A DNA stretch of 64,000 bases from the NCBI GenBank assembly GCA_903843285.1, contig CAIMPC010000039.1, forward strand, positions 44,886 to 108,885, given 5' to 3'. A program made the position numbers and the translations under genes. The notes below the pieces were generated by a model. The model was not told where the DNA came from. It saw nothing but the letters and a program-made list of their open reading frames with translations, and did not search any database. Positions 1,492-63,051 of the stretch are shown one piece after another (position 1 is the first letter of the stretch; each line of letters opens with the position of its first letter). Source of the stretch: Candidatus Omnitrophota bacterium. Its GTDB lineage: Bacteria; Omnitrophota; Gorgyraeia; 2-01-FULL-45-10.

Positions 1492-2943
1492 ATGAAGATA
1501 TATAATTCACTCACAAGAAAAAAGGAAGATCTTGTGCCGATCGAAGCGAAAAAGATCGGCATTTACGTCTGCGGGCCCACCGTGTACGATGAACCGCATA
1601 TCGGACATGCGCGCAGTGCCTATATATTTGATGTGATACGACGCTACCTAGTTTATAAAGGTAATGATGTAAAATTTGTCCGAAACGTTACCGATGTTGA
1701 TGACAAGATCATAAATAGGGCTAAGGATTTATCGAAAGACGGCCCGAATCTGATCGAGGCAACAAAGCAGATATCGAAGAAGTACCTCGATTCCTATCAC
1801 CGCGATATGGAGCTCCTGGGCATCGGTCACCCGGACAGAGAGCCTAAGGCCACAGAATATATCCCTAAGATGATCAAGTTTATAGAGATCCTCATAGATA
1901 AGGGGTCGGCATACGCGGTAGACGGAGGCGTATATTTCGATGTAAAGAAGGCCAGGGACTACGGTAAGCTTTCCAACCAGAATATTGAAAAGATGGAGGC
2001 TGGTGCCAGGGTCTCTCTGGGTGAGAAAAAGAAGGACGGATTGGATTTCGCATTGTGGAAATCCGCGAAAGAAGGTGAGCCTTCGTGGGACAGCCCGTGG
2101 GGAAAGGGGCGCCCCGGGTGGCACATCGAGTGCTCGGTGATGAGTTCCGATATTCTCGGAGATGAATTTGATATTCACGGCGGCGGTATAGACTTGATAT
2201 TTCCGCATCATGAGAACGAGGTAGCCCAATCCGAAGGCGCCGGCAAGAAATTCGCTCATTATTGGATACATAACGGCCTGCTTACCATAGACGGCGAAAA
2301 GATGGCGAAGTCTCTCGGTAATTTTATATCAATACAAGATTTCATAAAGAAGTATAGGGACGCGGATTACCTAAAGCTGTTATTTCTCAATACGCATTAC
2401 CGCCACCCGGTCGACTATAGCGAAGAGAAGATAGGTGAAATGAAGATTCAGAAGGAAAGGTTCATGATACTTTTCGATAAGATAGACAGAATCGCCAAGG
2501 CTTCCGGTTCCGGGCTTTCAGCCGCGTCCGAGACGACCGGAAATATTGAAGCCGGGGATCTGTCCAGGGCAAAATTTGATGATGCCATGGATGACGATTT
2601 CAATACTCCCCTTGCGCTTGCGTCGCTATTTGATGAAGTCACATATGCAAACAAACTGATGCAGGGCAAAGATGACTTCACACGTTTTGAAGCAGAGAAT
2701 CTATTGGCGATAAAGAAGCAGATTGTCGAACTTGGCCGCATACTTGCCCTCGACATAGAGAAGGACTTAACTAAGACGGATGTGAATGAGACCGAGGTGC
2801 TTAGGTTGATCGGAGAAAGAAACGGAGCTCGAGCCAAAGGTGATTTTAAGGCCGCAGATGAGATACGGAAGAAGCTCTCAGGGGAGCTCGGCATAATACT
2901 TGAGGATACAAAAGAAGGAACCTCATGGCGAAAACGATCTTAA
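1492..2943 (+). CDS. cysS: cysteine--tRNA ligase
   Basis: 483 aa. HIGH-type motif (PHIGHARSA) and KMSKS-type motif (KMAKSLGN). The N-terminus MKIYNSLTRKKE is typical CysRS. Confidence 0.95.
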   Translation: MKIYNSLTRKKEDLVPIEAKKIGIYVCGPTVYDEPHIGHARSAYIFDVIRRYLVYKGNDVKFVRNVTDVDDKIINRAKDLSKDGPNLIEATKQISKKYLDSYHRDMELLGIGHPDREPKATEYIPKMIKFIEILIDKGSAYAVDGGVYFDVKKARDYGKLSNQNIEKMEAGARVSLGEKKKDGLDFALWKSAKEGEPSWDSPWGKGRPGWHIECSVMSSDILGDEFDIHGGGIDLIFPHHENEVAQSEGAGKKFAHYWIHNGLLTIDGEKMAKSLGNFISIQDFIKKYRDADYLKLLFLNTHYRHPVDYSEEKIGEMKIQKERFMILFDKIDRIAKASGSGLSAASETTGNIEAGDLSRAKFDDAMDDDFNTPLALASLFDEVTYANKLMQGKDDFTRFEAENLLAIKKQIVELGRILALDIEKDLTKTDVNETEVLRLIGERNGARAKGDFKAADEIRKKLSGELGIILEDTKEGTSWRKRS

Positions 2944-3593
2944 AGACTACGCGGCACTGCGCCGGATCTAAGGCAAAGCGAGGCTTATTTATAACGTTCG
3001 AAGGCATAGAAGGTTGCGGCAAGACTACTCAGTCGAAGCTATTATACGATACCTTAAAGAAGCAGAATCTTGACTGCATGCTTACTCGTGAACCGGGAGG
3101 GACGTCTCTGGGCGAAAAGATAAGGGGATTGCTTTTACACTCGGACGGTATAAAGATATCCGATAGGTCGGAATTATTCCTATTTGAGGCTTCACGCAGT
3201 CAGATCGTGAAAGAGGTGATAACCCCGGCCCTTAAGTCCGGTAAGATAGTTATATGTGACAGGTTCAGCGATGCTACTTTTAGTTATCAGGGTTATGGCG
3301 GTAAAATTCCGATCGAGATCATTAGAACCCTCGATCATGCCGCTACCGGAGGCCTTAAGCCGGATCTTACCATACTTCTGGACATCGATACGATTACCGG
3401 ACTTAAGCGCGCAAGGCAGAAAGGTATCGATAGGATGGAAGGAAAAGATATAGCGTATCATAAGAGAGTTCGTGCGGGGTATTTAGACCTTGCATTGCGA
3501 TACCCCAATAGGATTAAAGTTATAAAGGTTGCCGATTCGATCGGCAAGACATATAGAGCGGTGGAGCGAGAGGTGGCGCGTGTCATCGTTTAA
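2925..3593 (+). CDS. tmk: thymidylate kinase (start codon uncertain; overlaps cysS)
   Basis: P-loop FITFEGIEGCGKTTQ, DRF motif and the overall Tmk fold pattern. The ORF-track start at 2925 gives an unusually long leader before the P-loop, so the real start may be a few codons downstream. Confidence 0.85.
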   Translation: MAKTILKTTRHCAGSKAKRGLFITFEGIEGCGKTTQSKLLYDTLKKQNLDCMLTREPGGTSLGEKIRGLLLHSDGIKISDRSELFLFEASRSQIVKEVITPALKSGKIVICDRFSDATFSYQGYGGKIPIEIIRTLDHAATGGLKPDLTILLDIDTITGLKRARQKGIDRMEGKDIAYHKRVRAGYLDLALRYPNRIKVIKVADSIGKTYRAVEREVARVIV

Positions 3594-4746
3594 AGATATA
3601 TTGGCTCAGGATAGCGCAGTATCATTTCTAAGAAGCGCTATTAATAGCGAAAGGATAGCTAACGCTTATCTGTTTCATGGCCCAAGCGGTGTGGGTAAGA
3701 AGATGACGGCCATTAGCTTTGCGAAAGCGATCAATTGCATTTGTCCGCATGGGGGTACTGTTGCGAAATACAACTCCCGTCATTCTGAGGGAGGCCAACG
3801 GCCGACCGAAGAATCTAAAAGCGAGATCCTTCCTCGCTTCGCTCGTCAGGATGACAGACGCTCTTTACTTCGCACTTTGGTCCCTTCGCTTCAGAATGAC
3901 GTGGAATTTGACATTTCGCAACAGTCTCATAGCGATGTTAACCATGGACTACCCTCGGGCGATTCGATAGATGGGTGCGGCAGCTGCTCATCGTGCAAAA
4001 AGATAAATTCACTGAACCATCCGGATGTGCGTTTAATAGAAGCCGATAACTATGGCTCGTCGGTGAAGATAGAGGATGTCAGGGCCGTGATAGAGGATGT
4101 GGGGATGAAGCCGTATGAGGCGAAGAAGAAGGTCTATATAGTAGACGGTGCCGATAACCTGACGGAAGAGGCGGCCAACGCTCTTCTTAAGACCCTCGAG
4201 GAGCCTTCTTCTGAATCTATGCTTATACTGATCTCGGAGAACTCGAGACGACTGCTTTCAACCATAAGGTCGCGTTGTCAGGCGGTGAAATTTTTTCCGC
4301 TCGGCGTGAATACCGTAGCGAAGATTCTCACCGATAGACATGGCATAAATGGTGACACCGCGCATATCCTGGCGGGACTATCGTGTGGGTCGCTCGGCGA
4401 GGCATTGAGGCTTAACGAGGATGATTTCTTTGCCAGGAGAGACCGGATAATAAAGGCGCTTTCGACCGGAACATTGGCAGAGCTCGAGTTTGATAAAACT
4501 ACCAGGCCCGAACTGCGGACGGCATTAAACATAATGCTGATGTGGTATCGCGATATCCTTGTGGCCAAGGCAGGTAATTCGAACGTAATAAATATCGATA
4601 AAGAAGCTCTGATCTATTCAGAAGCAAAAAAGACGGGTTTTGATAGATTGAATAATACTATAACACGCATTATCTCGATCCAGGGATATCTGGAGCAGAA
4701 TGCTAATCCCAAGCTTGCCATGGCAGCGTTGGGATCCTCAATATAG
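3580..4746 (+). CDS. holB: DNA polymerase III delta-prime subunit carrying a 56-codon in-frame repeat-element insertion in the zinc-module loop
   Basis: AYLFHGPSGVGKK Walker A, a Cys cluster (NCICPHGG ... DGCGSCSSC), NALLKTLEEP and SRCQ sensor motifs. The GTG start at 3580 gives MSSFKDILAQD. Nucleotides 3757-3924 belong to the dispersed family A repeat (see findings). Confidence 0.85.
   Translation: MSSFKDILAQDSAVSFLRSAINSERIANAYLFHGPSGVGKKMTAISFAKAINCICPHGGTVAKYNSRHSEGGQRPTEESKSEILPRFARQDDRRSLLRTLVPSLQNDVEFDISQQSHSDVNHGLPSGDSIDGCGSCSSCKKINSLNHPDVRLIEADNYGSSVKIEDVRAVIEDVGMKPYEAKKKVYIVDGADNLTEEAANALLKTLEEPSSESMLILISENSRRLLSTIRSRCQAVKFFPLGVNTVAKILTDRHGINGDTAHILAGLSCGSLGEALRLNEDDFFARRDRIIKALSTGTLAELEFDKTTRPELRTALNIMLMWYRDILVAKAGNSNVINIDKEALIYSEAKKTGFDRLNNTITRIISIQGYLEQNANPKLAMAALGSSI
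3757..3924 (+). mobile_element. MITE-like repeat family A, copy 1 (168 bp), inserted in-frame inside holB
   Basis: ACTGTTGCGAAATACAAC..GTCATTCTGAGGGAGGCCAACGGCCGACCGAAGAATCT....CAGAATGACGTGGAATTTGACATTTCGCAACAGT. It has the same terminal inverted repeats and core as copies at 7299, 51306, 52513 and 62917. Length is exactly 56 codons with no stop in the holB frame. Confidence 0.8.
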
Positions 4747-4755
4747 GCGGTATAT

Positions 4756-5541
4756 ATGAACGAAGCCGTACAGATTAAATTAAGAGAGTCGGGCAAAATT
4801 ACCCACTTCTCAACGAGTGGGATGAGGTTTAAGGCGGGTGATTACGTTATTATAGAGGCGGATAGAGGCCTGGACTACGGTCAAATCTTATCCGATCCCG
4901 AAGCGATTCTGGAATCGGATCTCGAGGAGCCTCTGCGAAAGATAATACGTAAGGCAAACCCGTGGGATATGCATCAGATCGATAAGAATAAGAATAAGAT
5001 AAAAGAGGTTATGGACTCCTGCTCAAAAAAGATAAAAGAGCGCCATCTTGCAATGAAGCTTATAGATGCCGAATATTCTTTCGATCGCTCAAAGATAGTA
5101 TTTTATTTTACAGCTGAAGGAAGAGTCGACTTCAGAGACCTGGTTAAAGATCTGGCGAGTGCGTTTAAGACCAGGATAGAGCTTAAGCAGATAGGCGTCA
5201 GGGATGAAGCTAAGATGTTAGGGGGCCTTGGGCCCTGCGGGAGGGCGCTATGCTGTGCGACACATCTGAAAGATTTCGAGCCGGTTACTATAAAGATGGC
5301 CAAAGAGCAGAACTTACCGCTTAATCCGACTAAGATCTCGGGCCTCTGCGGACGGCTTATGTGCTGTTTGGGATATGAATATAGTACTTATAAAGATCTT
5401 ATGAAAGGCATGCCGCGCGAAGGAGAGATAATAAAGACAGCGAAAGGAAATGCTAAGGTCTTAGGTATAAATGCGTTAAAGCGCTCCGCTACCGTAGAAC
5501 TCGAGGACGGAAGCCAGATGGAAGTACCATACAATAAATAA
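4756..5541 (+). CDS. ricT: PSP1 C-terminal domain protein (RicT/YaaT-like)
   Basis: 261 aa. Conserved tmk-holB-yaaT synteny as in Bacillus. Cys-rich C-terminus (GPCGRALCCATHL...LCGRLMCCLGYE) is typical of PSP1/YaaT. Confidence 0.7.
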   Translation: MNEAVQIKLRESGKITHFSTSGMRFKAGDYVIIEADRGLDYGQILSDPEAILESDLEEPLRKIIRKANPWDMHQIDKNKNKIKEVMDSCSKKIKERHLAMKLIDAEYSFDRSKIVFYFTAEGRVDFRDLVKDLASAFKTRIELKQIGVRDEAKMLGGLGPCGRALCCATHLKDFEPVTIKMAKEQNLPLNPTKISGLCGRLMCCLGYEYSTYKDLMKGMPREGEIIKTAKGNAKVLGINALKRSATVELEDGSQMEVPYNK

Positions 5542-7298: not shown

Positions 7299-7471
7299 GG
7301 GGCTGTTGCGAAATACAACTTCTGTCATTCTGAGGAAGGCCATCGGCCGACCGAAGCCTGCCTACCTGCAGGTGTTCGACAGTAGGTAGGCAGGCTTCCT
7401 CGCTTCGCTCGTCAGGATGACAGACGCCCTTCGGCTTCTCTCAGAATTATAAAATTTGAATTTCCTGCCCC
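7299..7471 (+). mobile_element. MITE-like repeat family A, copy 2 (intergenic, metG-tatD)
   Basis: GGGGCTGTTGCGAAATACAACTTCTGTCATTCTGAGGAAGGCCATCGGCCGACCGAAG...CTCGTCAGGATGACAGACG...TCTCAGAATTATAAAATTTGAATTTCCTGCCCC. It carries an extra internal palindrome GCCTGCCTACCTGC/GCAGGTAGGCAGGC. Confidence 0.75.
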
Positions 7472-7539
7472 AGTCACATTTACCGACGCATTACTTCATT
7501 ATTGCAATCTGTGTCGTATTATCATATAATCATGATATT

Positions 7540-8904
7540 ATGTTAATAGATACGCACTGTCATCTTGATTTTAAGGACTTTGACCACGACCGCGATGAGG
7601 TAATAAGCAGAGCATCAAATGCCGGAGTTGGGCGAATAATAAACGTAGCCAGCTCTGTGGAGGGATCCCGCCGGTCTGTAGAGCTTGCGGGTAAGTATGA
7701 GCACATATATTCTACCATAGGAATCCATCCTCATGATGCGGCGTCCGTAAATGATGGTGTTATGTCTGAGCTTAAAGCGCTTGCTACAGGAAAGAAGGTT
7801 GTCGCGATAGGCGAAGTAGGACTCGATTATTACCGCAATCTCTCTTCCAGGGAGGATCAGATATCTGCCTTTAATAAATTCATCGATCTTGCGCTGGAGC
7901 TCGACCTGCCGATGATATTACATGTCAGGGAAGCTGATCGCGATGCATTAGATATACTTAAGGCCCGAAACAGATCCCTTCGCGGTGTAATACACTGTTT
8001 TTCAGGAAGCTCTGATTTTATGAAGGAATGCCTCGATTTTGGATTATTCGTATCATTTACCGCAAACATTACTTTTAAAAAAGCAGATCCGCTCAGAATG
8101 GTAGCGCGCGACGTTTGTACGGAAAGATTACTGCTGGAGACGGATGCGCCGTTCCTGGCTCCTCAGGCCTTGCGAGGCCAACGCAATGAACCGGCATACC
8201 TCACCCACCTGGCGGGAGAATGGTCGCGCCTCCTGGACCTGTCAAAAGACGATATCGCCAGAATCACGACTCATAACGCCAATACCCTTTTTAGATTAGA
8301 TGTAGAAGAGTCATCCAGGATTGCATACGAGATAAGGGATTCCCTCTATCTGAATATAACCAATAGATGCACCAACTCATGCTATTTCTGCATAAGGAAC
8401 CAGACTTCCTTCGTAAAAGGGCATAACCTTAAGATCGATAAAGAGCCGTCGGTAGATGAAATAATGGATGCAGTGAAGGGTTCGAAAAAATATAATGAGA
8501 TAGTATTTTGTGGTTATGGTGAACCTACGCTTAGGCTGGATGTGATTAAAGATGTGGCCGCCAGGGTGAAGGATTCCGGGGTTAAAGTTAGAGTGGTTAC
8601 CAATGGTCATGGCGACCTGATAAATTCCAGAAAAATAGCCAAAGAGCTGTCCGGGATAGTCGATAAAGTATCCGTAAGCCTTAATACGAATACCAAAGAA
8701 TTGTACAATAAATACTGTAAGCCTCAGTTCGGCCCGGATACTTATGGCGACGTGATAAGCTTTATTAAGGATTGCGTTGCAAATAAAATAGAAGTGGAAG
8801 TGACGTGCCTTGATCTTCCCGACGTGGATCTTAAAGAGTGCGAAGCTATCATTAAAGAGCTTGGGGGTATATTCAGGCCTCGATCTCTCGGAGTGGTCGG
8901 ATGA
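7540..8904 (+). CDS. fusion protein: TatD-family metal-dependent hydrolase (N-terminal) + radical SAM domain (C-terminal, TatD-associated radical SAM type)
   Basis: N-terminal MLIDTHCHLDFKDFDHDRDEV, GIHPHDA and EVGLDYY are TatD motifs. The C-terminal part has the CTNSCYFC CxxxCxxC radical-SAM cluster motif plus the GYGEPTL glycine-rich SAM motif. Start chosen at the ATG just before the TatD HxH motif. Confidence 0.75.
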   Translation: MLIDTHCHLDFKDFDHDRDEVISRASNAGVGRIINVASSVEGSRRSVELAGKYEHIYSTIGIHPHDAASVNDGVMSELKALATGKKVVAIGEVGLDYYRNLSSREDQISAFNKFIDLALELDLPMILHVREADRDALDILKARNRSLRGVIHCFSGSSDFMKECLDFGLFVSFTANITFKKADPLRMVARDVCTERLLLETDAPFLAPQALRGQRNEPAYLTHLAGEWSRLLDLSKDDIARITTHNANTLFRLDVEESSRIAYEIRDSLYLNITNRCTNSCYFCIRNQTSFVKGHNLKIDKEPSVDEIMDAVKGSKKYNEIVFCGYGEPTLRLDVIKDVAARVKDSGVKVRVVTNGHGDLINSRKIAKELSGIVDKVSVSLNTNTKELYNKYCKPQFGPDTYGDVISFIKDCVANKIEVEVTCLDLPDVDLKECEAIIKELGGIFRPRSLGVVG

Positions 8905-11063: not shown

Positions 11064-11157
11064 GGATTTTTTCGCACGCACCATAGTTAGGCATTTACTT
11101 TTGGGTGGTGCCTTCGCTTATCGCAAATTTGATTAGTCATACAAATTTGCCGTTGTG
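11064..11157 (+). repeat. repeat family B, copy 1 (short; immediately after stop codon)
   Basis: GATTTTTTCGCACGC...TTTACTTTTGGGTGGTGCCTTCGCTTATCGCAAATTTG...CAAATTTGCCGTTGT. Shares 30-40 nt blocks with the copies at 22741 and 28278. Confidence 0.65.
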
Positions 11158-28278: not shown

Positions 28279-28450
28279 TTTTTCGGCAACAACGGACAGG
28301 CGTTTACTTTTGGGTGGTACCTTCGCTTGTCGTTCGCTCGGATTAGCCATCCTCGCTCACTGTTGATAAAATTTCGATGGTGAAGCCTGTATCGGCATAA
28401 GGTATCGAAATTTTATAAAGTCGCTACGGCACGCACCCAAAAGTTCCGCC
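28278..28450 (+). repeat. repeat family B, copy 3 (immediately after stop); inner element bounded by 11-bp terminal inverted repeat ACTTTTGGGTG/CACCCAAAAGT (28305-28444)
   Basis: ATTTTTCGGCAAC...GTTTACTTTTGGGTGGTACCTTCGCTTGTCGTTCGCTCGG...TGTTGATAAAATTTCGAT[25-nt loop]ATCGAAATTTTATAAAGTCGCTACGGCACGCACCCAAAAGTTCCGCC. Confidence 0.7.
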
Positions 28451-32447: not shown

Positions 32448-32493
32448 ACGTGGGGAGATTTTCCGGCTATGCGAGTGCGATAGAAGTGCATGC

Positions 32494-32578
32494 GTCATTC
32501 TGAGGAGGGCTTTAGCCCGACGAAGAATCTAAAAGCAAGATCCTTCGCTTCGCCCTATCGGGCTTCGCTCAGGATGAC
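32494..32578 (+). repeat. repeat family A, 85-bp core-only copy (GTCATTCTGAGG...CTCAGGATGAC)
   Basis: GTCATTCTGAGGAGGGCTTTAGCCCGACGAAGAATCTAAAAGCAAGATCCTTCGCTTCGCCCTATCGGGCTTCGCTCAGGATGAC. Same length and terminal inverted repeats as the divergent copy at 45398-45482. Confidence 0.7.
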
Positions 32579-32619
32579 GATAGGTATCTAATCTGGTTAG
32601 ATACTATGCGAAGGGAAAG

Positions 32620-44046: not shown

Positions 44047-44200
44047 GCGACGGAACTTCCTATGCCGCCTGAAACGACTGTCATAAAATTTCGATACCTA
44101 TTGGCGGTGCAGGTTTTACCATCGAAAGTTTATCACAGCGAGCGAGGAAGCCGATTCCGAGCGAGCGACAAGTGGAAGGCGGCATAGGAAGTTCCGTCGC
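44047..44200 (-). mobile_element. repeat family B, copy 4 in inverted orientation; 154 bp bounded by perfect 23-bp terminal inverted repeats GCGACGGAACTTCCTATGCCGCC / GGCGGCATAGGAAGTTCCGTCGC
   Basis: The reverse complement aligns with copy 3: CCTTCCACTTGTCGCTCGCTCGGAATCGGCTTCCTCGCTCGCTGTGATAAACTTTCGAT vs CCTTCGCTTGTCGTTCGCTCGGATTAGCCATCCTCGCTCACTGTTGATAAAATTTCGAT. The hairpin ATAAAATTTCGAT is also shared. Confidence 0.75.
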
Positions 44201-45397: not shown

Positions 45398-45482
45398 GTC
45401 ATGCTGAGCGAAGCGAAGCATCTGCTTTTATTTATTGCCGTCGTAACCAGATCCTTCGGCCATTTCATGGTCTCAGGATGAC
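45398..45482 (+). repeat. repeat family A, divergent 85-bp core copy (GTCATGCTGAG...CTCAGGATGAC)
   Basis: GTCATGCTGAGCGAAGCGAAGCATCTGC...CATGGTCTCAGGATGAC. Terminal inverted repeats match family A core ends. Confidence 0.55.
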
Positions 45483-45516
45483 GCTACTTTTATCGGACAG
45501 GCATGGCATCTAACGA

Positions 45517-50635: not shown

Positions 50636-51304
50636 ATGCATATTCCAGATGGTTATCTAGGGCCCGCGACCTGCGGGTTTTTTTATGCAGTGATGATTCC
50701 TGTATGGACGTTTGCCTCGAGGATAGTTAAGAGGACCCTCTCGACGAAGCAGGTTCCGCTCCTCGCCATAGGCGCCGCATTCAGCTTCGTTATAATGATG
50801 TTCAACCTGCCTATACCCGGAGGAACTACCGGCCATGCGGTCGGTGGCGTTCTGGTGGCGATACTCTTAGGGCCGTGGGCGGCATGTCTGGCGATTACGG
50901 TCGCATTGGTGGTTCAGGCCCTTCTTTTCGGAGACGGTGGAGTCACTGCCATCGGCGCAAATTGTTTCAATATGGCTTTTGTACTGCCATTTGCAGGATA
51001 TTATACATACAGATTAATAAGCTATGGCGCGCCTATTGTTTCAAATAGAAGAATCATTGCGGCAGGGATAGCGGGATATATAGGCCTTAATGCCGCCGCA
51101 TTATTGACCGGCATAGAATTTGGTATACAGCCTCTGATTCATCGTACAGCAAACGGCCAGGCGCTGTATTGTCCATACGGGATCAACGTAGCGGTTCCTG
51201 TAATGGCCGGAGAGCATCTTTTGATATTCGGATGGATAGAAGCGATAGTAACCGCGCTCGTTGTTAAATATCTTCAGAAGCAGGACGTAGGCCTGCTTAA
51301 ATAA
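50636..51304 (+). CDS. cbiM: CbiM/NikM-family ECF transporter substrate-capture component (Co/Ni)
   Basis: MHIPDGYL N-terminus, the hallmark of CbiM/NikM; multi-pass membrane protein. Confidence 0.7.
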   Translation: MHIPDGYLGPATCGFFYAVMIPVWTFASRIVKRTLSTKQVPLLAIGAAFSFVIMMFNLPIPGGTTGHAVGGVLVAILLGPWAACLAITVALVVQALLFGDGGVTAIGANCFNMAFVLPFAGYYTYRLISYGAPIVSNRRIIAAGIAGYIGLNAAALLTGIEFGIQPLIHRTANGQALYCPYGINVAVPVMAGEHLLIFGWIEAIVTALVVKYLQKQDVGLLK

Positions 51305-51305
51305 G

Positions 51306-51420
51306 GGGACTGTTGCGAAATGCAACTTCCGTCATTCTGAGGGAGGCCATCGGCCGACCGAAGAATCTATTTACCGTCGAGATTCTTCACTGCGCCCTTC
51401 GGGCTTCGTTCAGAATGACG
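51306..51420 (+). repeat. repeat family A, copy lacking right outer terminal inverted repeat
   Basis: GGGACTGTTGCGAAATGCAACTTCCGTCATTCTGAGGGAGGCCATCGGCCGACCGAAGAATCTATTTACCGTCGAGATTCTTCACTGCGCCCTTCGGGCTTCGTTCAGAATGAC. Confidence 0.75.
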
Positions 51421-52512: not shown

Positions 52513-52654
52513 GGGACTGTTGTAAAATACAACTTCCGTCATTCTGAGGGAGGCCATCGGCCGACCGAAGAATCTATTTACCGTCGAGATTCTTCACTTC
52601 GCCCTTTGGGCTTCGTTCAGAATGACGGGAAAATTGACATTTCGCAACAGTCCC
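52513..52654 (+). mobile_element. MITE-like repeat family A, full 142-bp copy with ~35-bp terminal inverted repeats
   Basis: Left GGGACTGTTGTAAAATACAACTTCCGTCATTCTGA; right TCAGAATGACGGGAAAATTGACATTTCGCAACAGTCCC, its reverse complement with a few mismatches. Also has an internal palindrome GAAGAATCT..AGATTCTTC. Confidence 0.8.
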
Positions 52655-62748: not shown

Positions 62749-62916
62749 ACCTTCGAAAGTGGCGCGGAGTGAGTATTCCTCAGCAGTTCCGCCGTGGCGC
62801 GGATTTAGTAGAAAATAATCCCAAATTTTGATATCATAATATACCTTATGGTCTTCTTCGCTGTAATGGTAAGACCGTGATGAAGCTTCGAAGGACCTAT
62901 TCCTACGAAGAGACAG

Positions 62917-63051
62917 CTGAGAAATAAAACTTTCGTCATTCTGAGGGAGGCCATCGGCCGACCGAAGAATCTATTTACAGTTGAGATTCTTCACTTCGCC
63001 CTTCGGGCTTCGTTCAGAATGACGTGGAATTTGATATTTCGCAACAGTTCC
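62917..63051 (+). repeat. repeat family A copy with degenerate left outer terminal inverted repeat
   Basis: ...GAAATAAAACTTTCGTCATTCTGAGGGAGGCCATCGGCCGACCGAAGAATCTATTTACAGTTGAGATTCTTCACTTCGCCCTTCGGGCTTCGTTCAGAATGACGTGGAATTTGATATTTCGCAACAGTTCC. Confidence 0.75.

Follow-up and report, generated by a model that had tools for sequence, protein, structure and literature searches.

The Rickettsia palindromic elements (RPEs) are dispersed palindromes of about 100–150 nt, a sizeable fraction of which lies in-frame in unrelated housekeeping genes, adding a conserved peptide where the protein fold permits it; dnaE of R. conorii is one such host gene (Ogata et al., 2000, as summarized in PMC10969869 and PMC3733652). 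RPEs have been described as the extreme case of in-frame insertion by MITEs (small transposable elements, 'miniature', with inverted repeats), and intragenic in-frame copies are also named for ERIC, the Anabaena MITEs and QMITE1 of C. burnetii (PMC10969869). RPE-4 and RPE-6 are CGTC-tagged repetitive extragenic palindromes (REPs) with an ATTC...GAAT stem (Di Nocera et al., 2013; PMC3733652). The REPs of this class carry a CGTC (or TGTC/CCTC) tag, an 8–9-bp stem starting with AT and a loop of 4–5 nt, form inverted dimers and have no dedicated transposase; most are located between co-directional or convergent genes, near the upstream stop codon, and the intragenic ones are often found in genes of DNA synthesis and repair (PMC3733652). 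REPINs are inverted hairpin pairs with a GTAG tag and a linked RAYT gene (PMC3733652). Here we describe a palindromic element inside holB, the gene for the δ′ subunit of DNA polymerase III, in a 64-kb stretch of contig CAIMPC010000039.1 from a Candidatus Omnitrophota bacterium; this whole stretch is hereafter called the window. The insert is most probably a non-autonomous transposable element, a MITE, that entered holB and was tolerated there.

The gene carrying the insert is holB. Its product scored 185.8 bits with the TIGR00678 equivalog model (cutoff 180.6), in two matching stretches with the insert between them, and contains the Pfam domains DNA_pol3_delta2 (PF13177) and DNApol3-delta_C (PF09115). 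The gene order tmk-holB-PSP1 is that of other bacteria, and named homologs assign the host to Omnitrophota. In an alignment of 91 Omnitrophota HolB proteins, the window protein retains all 28 invariant and most near-invariant positions; the four zinc cysteines (C53, C133, C136 and C139) and S231-R232 of the SRC sequence at residues 231–233 occupy invariant columns. The reading frame (3529/3580–4746) is uninterrupted through the insert, where it encodes the peptide TVAKYNSRHSEGGQRPTEESKSEILPRFARQDDRRSLLRTLVPSLQNDVEFDISQQ, and the frameshift or stop codon that would mark a pseudogene is absent from its 388 codons.

The insert is positioned in the zinc module, between C53 and the C133-x2-C136-x2-C139 group. 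Residues 3–54 pair with residues 14–65 of E. coli γ, past its Cys64, and residues 129 onward with γ 69 onward (Cys73/76/79); the 74 residues 55–128 stand in place of three residues of γ between Cys64 and Cys73. The spacing from zinc ligand 1 to ligands 2–4 is 79 residues, against the usual 8. The loop between the first two cysteines comprises 8 residues in 60 of the 91 proteins and more than 10 in 23, with lengths of 11–44 residues in the 22 other than the window protein. The insert is missing from the remaining 90 sequences, among them the nearest orthologs, P0002 (69–70% identity, 322 aa) and P0003 (66–67%, 327 aa). The stretch SHSDVNHGLPSGDSIDG that follows the element is there because of an older, modest loop expansion common to P0002 and P0003. 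The earlier claim of a repeat copy lying in-frame between the first cysteine and CGSCSSC is thus borne out by the open frame, the TIGR00678 and Pfam matches and the alignments.

The body of the insert is an ACTG...CAGT palindrome of 169 nt (3757–3925). Conserved 3-nt extensions of the GGG/CCC type bring the element to 175 nt, and duplication of 5 bp of target brings the net insertion to 180 nt, or 60 codons. The preliminary description had given 168 bp, exactly 56 codons; this figure arose because the ends were drawn slightly narrow, and the in-frame property is real. The elements, with termini GGGACTGTTGCGAAAT, are bounded by terminal inverted repeats (TIRs) of about 25 nt, in which GGGACTGTTGCGAAATNCAACTTCC pairs with ...ATTTCGCAACAGTCCC in both window and metagenome copies. 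Inside the TIRs are two or three CGTC-tagged, REP-like hairpin units of three kinds: alpha, with the general form CGTC ATTCTGAGG [GAGGCC-ATC-GGCCGAC] CGAAGAAT C; beta, an inverted unit with a design like that of alpha; and gamma, an ATCCTGA...AAGGAT variant. They are arranged as alpha(+)/beta(-) or alpha(+)/gamma(-) doublets. Measured from ACTG to CAGT, eight copies span exactly 136 nt and two, the holB copy and that of contig L020 described below, 169 nt; full elements measure 142, 175 or 178 nt and the corresponding net insertions, 147, 180 and 183 nt, are multiples of three. The RNA of the holB insert folds as a single long nested hairpin (-74.1 kcal/mol, z = -6.3). No Rfam match was obtained over the whole window at gathering thresholds or over 3700–3990 at E<=1, and the window is devoid of tRNA genes.

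The target-site duplication (TSD) was evaluated on the flanks of ten full-length copies, for lengths of 3–9 bp and offsets of 0–4, with the expectation derived from permuted flanks. A 5-bp direct repeat located three bases outside ACTG/CAGT gave 37 of 50 matches compared with 18.0 expected, and all other lengths and registers within these ranges were at chance level. Candidate duplications of 7 and 9 bp noted by eye were dropped, as they represent the 5-bp register padded with TIR bases.

Empty counterparts of two filled sites are found in the fully syntenic contig of P0002 (L003; ispD-ispF-...-cysS-tmk-holB-PSP1-metG), which has neither the holB copy nor the copy of the metG-tatD spacer. The holB empty site reconstructed from the TSD, ...TGTCCGCATGG|CGATGTT..., leaves a loop of 19 residues, and that of P0003 has 18; the allele without the element is predicted to join ...CCGCATGG directly to CGATGTT.... 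TIRs, a TSD in one register, fixed 136/169-nt units, dispersed copies and filled and empty syntenic sites, with a gain of exactly 60 codons in an intact gene, uphold the earlier designation of the insert as a miniature inverted-repeat element. Coordinates are listed in Table 1.

Table 1. Positions of holB, the inserted element and its parts, related repeats and adjacent genes in the window.
Feature	Position	Strand	Remarks
175-nt element, holB-type variant: TIR-L, alpha, inverted gamma, inverted degenerate beta, TIR-R	~3753..3927	+	~93% identical to L020 copy
Left TSD copy, CATGG	3748..3752 (canonical register ATGGG 3749-3753)	+	register-specific direct repeat
Left TIR GGGtACTGTTGCGAAATACAACTCC	3753..3777	+	
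Alpha unit, CGTC-tagged hairpin: CGTC ATTCTGAGG GAGGCC-AAC-GGCCGAC CGAAGAAT C	3778..3815	+	
Gamma unit (inverted): TGTC ATCCTGACGAGCGAAGCGAGGAAGGAT C	3825..3856	-	extra module, sets the 175-nt variant apart from the 142-nt one
Beta unit (inverted, degenerate tail), head CGTCATTCTGAA	3860..3901	-	sequence compared with other beta units
Right TIR ...GGAATTTGACATTTCGCAACAGTCT	3902..3927	+	
Right TSD copy, CATAG	3928..3932	+	
holB (DNA polymerase III delta-prime)	3580..4746	+	388 aa with insert, GTG start; TIGR00678, PF13177, PF09115, Foldseek
Cys53 codon, first zinc ligand (NC motif; NCIC)	3736..3738	+	invariant in 91 HolBs; pairs with Cys64 of E. coli gamma
Lineage-specific loop expansion of older date (..DVNHGLPSGDSIDG), outside the element	3933..3975	+	aligns with expanded loops of P0002 and P0003
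CGSCSSC, zinc ligands 2-4 (C133, C136, C139)	3976..3996	+	invariant columns; pair with C73/C76/C79 of E. coli gamma
Intergenic copy, metG-tatD spacer	7299..7477	+	extra palindromic module, right end decayed; missing from L003 spacer
Intergenic copy directly after cbiM stop codon	51306..51447	+	right TIR decayed
Intergenic copy of canonical type, 142 nt, between two pilin-like genes	52513..52654	+	
Intergenic copy downstream of gspF-like gene	62910..63051	+	left TIR diverged
Doublet of CGTC units without TIRs (alpha-like + inverted gamma-like), between xerC and kdtA	32493..32579	+	
Solitary gamma-type CGTC unit	45450..45483	-	
tmk (thymidylate kinase)	2925..3593	+	upstream, overlaps holB start; Pfam PF02223, 163 bits
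PSP1-domain gene	4756..5541	+	downstream of holB; PF04468, 121 bits

The left-end 30-mer occurs at four window sites with <=3 mismatches (0.00 expected in shuffles), and repeat finding with alignment raised the number to five copies plus a partial one, the fifth at ~62910. All four full copies outside holB lie between genes, as had been stated for those at 7299, 51306, 52513 and 62917. A scan for the conserved core among 185,579 species representatives found 2 copies, both in one other Omnitrophota metagenome-assembled genome (MAG); in metagenomes it gave 25 matches (~20 distinct) in 23 stretches, nearly all of them from two JGI metagenomes. The insert peptide was equally rare: a profile search of 5.8 billion proteins returned just two short open reading frames (ORFs) and an index-free search of 1.84 billion representatives two matches with E ~1e-4, both searches being blind to hosts whose cluster representative is without the insert. 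Given a single further MAG in the representative set and almost no peptide matches, the family is narrow.

All annotated genes examined across the window are on the + strand. A rule linking the orientation of copies to that of genes was rejected: window copies are all co-oriented with genes, and metagenome copies are mixed. Some copies start at or after an upstream stop codon, as at the TAA of cbiM (51304–51306) and in a metagenome contig, where the TAA of a sigma-54 activator-like gene is followed by a deleted copy (L025:5471-5476), which resembles the published abutment of REPs on the 3' ends of ORFs.

Repeats of this kind can mislead assemblers, and the preliminary description had raised the concern that a copy was joined to a holB gene that in reality lacks it. 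The family does break and misjoin metagenome assemblies. Contigs L009, L010 and L026 end inside copies, and the contig L059:1-1178 (JGI 3300012411) is a chimera, in which the first 148 nt, the left flank of the L019 copy, are joined inside the element to the right half of holB. Protein P0121 (239 aa), which starts after the insert, was considered as a disrupted allele and rejected as the product of this chimeric ~1.2-kb contig. In the window, holB sequence lies on either side of the insert and matches contiguous stretches of the orthologs; two misjoins, both exact, would be required for an artefact. Moreover, three separately assembled contigs are 100% identical to the window over 6–7 kb (a 139.7-kb MEGAHIT (k141) contig from ENA, an ENA/NCBI scaffold and a 60.5-kb JGI contig), and the exact 388-aa protein, P0001, is encoded on 13 contigs. 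An assembly artefact is thus very improbable.

Only two of the six frames of the element are stop-free. The frame in use is strongly hydrophilic (GRAVY, grand average of hydropathy, ~-1.1) with a net charge of about 0; the other open frame has a charge of +8 and is rich in aromatic residues. No Pfam domain was found in the insert peptide. Tryptic peptides predicted for the insert and its junctions are HSEGGQRPTEESK, SEILPR and the long TLVPSLQNDVEFDISQQSHSDVNHGLPSGDSIDGCGSCSSCK. An AlphaFold2 model calculated from the alignment of 91 HolB sequences has a mean pLDDT (per-residue confidence) of 84.8 and a pTM of 0.79, with 293 residues at >=90, and its best Foldseek matches are HolB/δ′ chains (9a80_B, 1jr3_E and 1a5t; TM 0.69–0.77). 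Residues 65–125 have pLDDT <50 and no secondary structure. In the model, δ′ keeps its usual fold, predicted with confidence, and the insert appears as a loop of low confidence, an unstructured excursion that may correspond to the external loop suggested earlier. The insert is probably translated, disordered and neutral.

The δ′ subunit is essential in model bacteria. Loss of function of holB, a young pseudogene with its zinc module destroyed and perhaps backed by a second gene copy, would be suggested by the separation of zinc ligand 1 from ligands 2–4 by 79 residues, not 8, and all assemblies being identical, they offer no polymorphism from which selection on holB could be inferred. However, the 388-codon frame is whole, the 28 invariant positions are kept, the holB model is matched above its cutoff, loops of 11–44 residues at this place are tolerated in 22 other Omnitrophota HolBs, and a second intact gene, coding for a CHASE2-SpoIIE protein, bears the element in the matching frame. 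These data, together with the essentiality of δ′, make inactivation quite improbable.

Removal of the insert from the product was also considered, whether through ribosomal bypassing of the type known from T4 gene 60 and the mitochondrial 'byps' or as a mini-intein. The stable hairpin and the CAT codons at 3748–3750 and 3928–3930 superficially resemble a take-off/landing pair, but there is no stop after the putative take-off codon, nothing in an open frame forces bypass, and the CAT...CAT pair is accounted for by the TSD. For an intein, 60 residues are too few, and neither the Cys/Ser/Thr...His-Asn pattern of splice junctions nor a Pfam match is present. Removal by either route appears exceedingly improbable.

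Besides holB, in-frame copies were identified in other genes. The CHASE2-SpoIIE phosphatase gene (L020:1301-3400) has a 175-nt variant (element ~1853-2027) inside its CHASE2 domain, in the same frame as in holB. The protein comprises 699 aa, compared with 637–641 aa in its orthologs, and the alignment with them shows one gap, exactly 60 residues long, ...DTDMYK[GTVAK...SQQSYK]PYLSLL; these 60 codons equal 175 + 5 nt. The insertion is missing from all 639-aa CHASE2 orthologs, and the gene is identical in several assemblies of the study series to which the window also belongs. In MAG JAZDEX01, dprA (L006:337-1497, core 1253-1290) contains a 38-nt alpha unit, in-frame (..HSEGGQRPTEES..) where a linker connects the DprA domain to the winged-helix domain; window positions 3779–3816 are 100% identical to this unit, as they are to the copies in another Omnitrophota MAG in general. 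The dprA belonging to the window is annotated in L063 and codes for 303 aa. A frame of >2100 codons (L012:6776-13102), with no Pfam match in its first 1200 aa, contains the inner doublet without TIRs in the opposite orientation, again in-frame (..RHSEAKPKDLKEEILRSAAGLPQNDG.., core 7682-7710, - strand). A protein predicted to be membrane-bound or secreted (L011:11767-12198) has, towards its N-terminus, a truncated copy that appears to be in the frame used in holB. In P0245, a strain variant of this protein, the inner module at that site is another one, PAYLQVFDSRQAG; module content therefore varies among strains at one site. In total, three or four intragenic copies share the hydrophilic frame: holB, L020, L011/P0245 and possibly L023.

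The common frame of these copies could be taken as a sign of co-option, with the 60-residue loop serving as a new interaction surface of the clamp loader, or the mRNA hairpin (-74 kcal/mol) regulating holB as an RNase III site or a translational brake. Consistent with a function are the high stability of this hairpin, the identity of the 38-nt alpha unit between genomes whose HolB and TopA have strongly diverged, and the frequent occurrence of intragenic REPs in replication and repair genes (Di Nocera et al., PMC3733652). On the other hand, the same peptide in unrelated proteins, δ′ and a CHASE2 sensor domain, argues against a specific function, the use of one frame is explained by stops that close four frames and by a remaining open frame of unfavourable composition, and the other 90 aligned HolBs do without the insert. 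Co-option has little probability; the element is more probably a selfish passenger, sieved by selection, than an adaptation.

Under the preferred reading, insertion of a MITE, a transposase acting in trans would have made a staggered 5-bp cut in the loop codons of holB between the first and second zinc cysteines, the 175-nt element would have been joined at the cut, and repair would have duplicated 5 bp to give 180 nt of added sequence. Selection would then retain only insertions that are frame-neutral, free of stops and located in loops. On translation, the 60 residues would form a flexible excursion out of the zinc module, leaving the clamp-loader fold and the SRC and zinc-cysteine motifs intact, and in holB mRNA the element could form a hairpin of about -74 kcal/mol, which translating ribosomes would have to unwind. 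The gene survived because 180 nt equal 60 codons, leaving the downstream frame unchanged, because the element entered in the hydrophilic one of its two stop-free frames and, as the alignment indicates in part, because the target loop is length-variable across Omnitrophota.

Several observations weigh against this reading or limit it. The holB TSD is imperfect, matching at 4/5 positions as CATGG/CATAG or at 3/5 as ATGGG/ATAGC one base over, and the canonical copy at 52513 has 0/5. No closely related holB allele with an empty site was found, the nearest ortholog being 69% identical, and the exact junction is a reconstruction, not an observed allele. Pfam or precomputed annotation of the genes across 7.5–61 kb showed no transposase, none was seen in the 64-kb window or the non-viral loci covered (a few hundred kb in total), and a TIR scan of the window and all non-viral loci revealed miniature copies only, with no larger or autonomous element. 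The identical contigs may represent related samples of one population, and the low pLDDT of the insert may reflect few homologs in the alignment, not real disorder. Finally, CGTC units or doublets without TIRs occur at L005, L006, L012, L015, L016, L021 and window position 32493, and part of the family may spread by a REP-like route that does not involve TIRs. An inverted pair in L025 was examined as a possible autonomous element and rejected: it flanks rpoN, not a transposase gene.

These solitary units suggest another origin, namely a REP/REPIN-type hairpin cluster spread through single-stranded hairpins by a tyrosine (RAYT/IS200-like) transposase, or by recombination of units, and not a transposon with TIRs and a TSD. 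The tag, the stem starting with AT and the inverted doublets of the inner units all follow the CGTC-REP design, and module content differs among copies as well as among strains at one site. Nevertheless, full-length copies are constant in length, their 25-nt TIRs are conserved and their 5-bp duplication is confined to one register; together with the exact gain of 60 codons, this is the signature of staggered-cut transposition of a whole unit. The window contains no RAYT gene. We consider this origin unlikely for the holB insert; the two routes could coexist if a MITE had captured a REP doublet.

The likeness to RPEs drawn in the preliminary description holds for the way of working, as indicated by the second in-frame host gene and the dprA unit, and does not extend to membership in an RPE family by sequence. 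As in Rickettsia, a dispersed palindrome lies in-frame in unrelated genes whose ORFs are kept (holB, the CHASE2-SpoIIE gene, dprA with a single unit and L012), a replication gene being among the hosts. At the sequence level, the resemblance consists only of the CGTC-ATTC...GAATC hairpin design, as in RPE-4 and RPE-6. The hosts differ, being free-living or host-associated Omnitrophota instead of an obligate intracellular alphaproteobacterium; the window element is marked by clear TIRs of 25 nt and a TSD of 5 bp, and its host site is the δ′ zinc module. The assignment outside the named RPE families is based on the peptide searches, which returned only copies of this lineage, not on direct alignment with RPEs. 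The available evidence supports an element that works like an RPE or an intragenic MITE and is not an RPE family member by sequence.

With the CGTC REPs, the element shares CGTC/TGTC tags on all alpha, beta and gamma units, inverted doublets, a position mostly between co-directional or convergent genes near the stop codon of the upstream one, some intragenic occurrences and the lack of a transposase in the window; the stem ATTCTGAGG / CCGAAGAAT has 9 positions, 7 of them paired, with two central G/A mismatches. However, this stem encloses an inner hairpin of 15–22 nt (e.g., GGCC-AAC-GGCC) instead of a 4–5-nt loop, and the doublet is packed in an element with TIRs and a TSD, an arrangement unreported in PMC3733652, the phyla of which do not include Omnitrophota. 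Like prokaryotic MITEs, the element is shorter than 500 bp, has TIRs, flanking direct repeats and stem-loop transcripts, and is mostly intergenic with occasional in-frame fusions; in contrast to them, its interior consists of REP-like modules, not remnants of an insertion sequence, and no parent insertion sequence was found in the loci scanned. The REPINs are similar in their inverted pairs of short hairpins making a longer hairpin and differ from the window element, which has a CGTC instead of a GTAG tag, a TSD and no RAYT gene within 64 kb.

Extra DNA is also present in the δ′ loop of other Omnitrophota. In the gene for P0047 (L061:10154-10225) it consists of another palindrome, of 42 nt, CCTTCGACAAACTCAGG-ATCGCAC-CCTGAGCTTGTCGAAGG, encoding PSTNSGSHPELVEG, and in that for P0061 (L062:2075-2188) it is a nested palindrome of ~80 nt (-64.6 kcal/mol); no second copies of either were found in their 13–21-kb loci, so their status as repeats is unproven. 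Judging from these sequences, independent palindromic insertions appear to have accumulated at the zinc-module loop. This recurrence probably reflects tolerance and not targeting, because the target 5-mers are AT-rich without a consensus. Zinc loop length also varies by a tandem duplication in P0049 (GYVQLEGTKVFVGNLGSRQ / GYVQPEGTQIFVENLGGFQ). Additional short inserts were noted elsewhere in HolB, GSVLRQNAQDDPGQSREAEDG in domain III of P0095 and IKTLRQAQSLYPGRSREIK after the zinc module of P0098.

A more far-reaching proposal, which we advance as speculative and with a small chance of being correct, is that the CGTC-REP doublet packed in 25-nt TIRs with a 5-bp TSD represents the missing mobilisation route of CGTC-tagged REPs, in a family adapted to coding-dense genomes as a generator of new loops, for which the δ′ loop would be a recurrent landing or retention site in Omnitrophota, with at least three different palindromes. 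The role of loop generator is suggested by net lengths divisible by three and by the hydrophilic frame without stops.

With the holB insertion, the occurrence of selfish DNA inside essential genes reaches beyond Rickettsia, and beyond the genomes of the 2013 survey, into Omnitrophota, a large phylum most of which is uncultured. Its bookkeeping is unusually clear, with TIRs, a duplication of 5 bp, a gain of exactly 60 codons in each of two unrelated genes and use of the single hydrophilic open frame. For annotation, it means that long 'lineage-specific loops' of conserved proteins can be repeat insertions. The apparent tolerance of the δ′ zinc loop to lengths of 8 to 79 residues informs on the constraint acting on this module, and the current understanding of clamp loaders and MITEs is unchanged.

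Units of the same design were observed in other contexts. Identical pairs of units without TIRs are present at L029:2841-2869 and 7369-7397 (also at L015:363-391); those of L029 are located ~130 nt upstream of two large paralogs (616 and 1498 codons) with similar N-termini resembling signal peptides, and the repeat appears to have been duplicated along with the gene 5' region. Eight IMG/VR contigs labelled viral, with 58–65% GC (L034, L035, L039, L044, L045, L051, L055 and L057), keep the outer stem GTCATTCTGAGG...CCGAAGAATCT, while their inner hairpins differ and are internally complementary; the unit design is thus far more widespread than the window family. A link to viruses was rejected, as 20 of 29 matches to the broad pattern represent one phage coding sequence without a hairpin. 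The window also contains a second, unrelated repeat family, one part of it a hairpin of ~53 nt, TGATAAAATTTCGATGG...ATCGAAATTTTAT, at 28364–28416 (+) and 44083–44135 (-), and the other a 35-nt direct repeat, AGGCRTTTACTTTTGGGTGGTRCCTTCGCTTRTCG, at 11089–11123 and 28298–28332, the latter copy being located just upstream of the hairpin at 28364.

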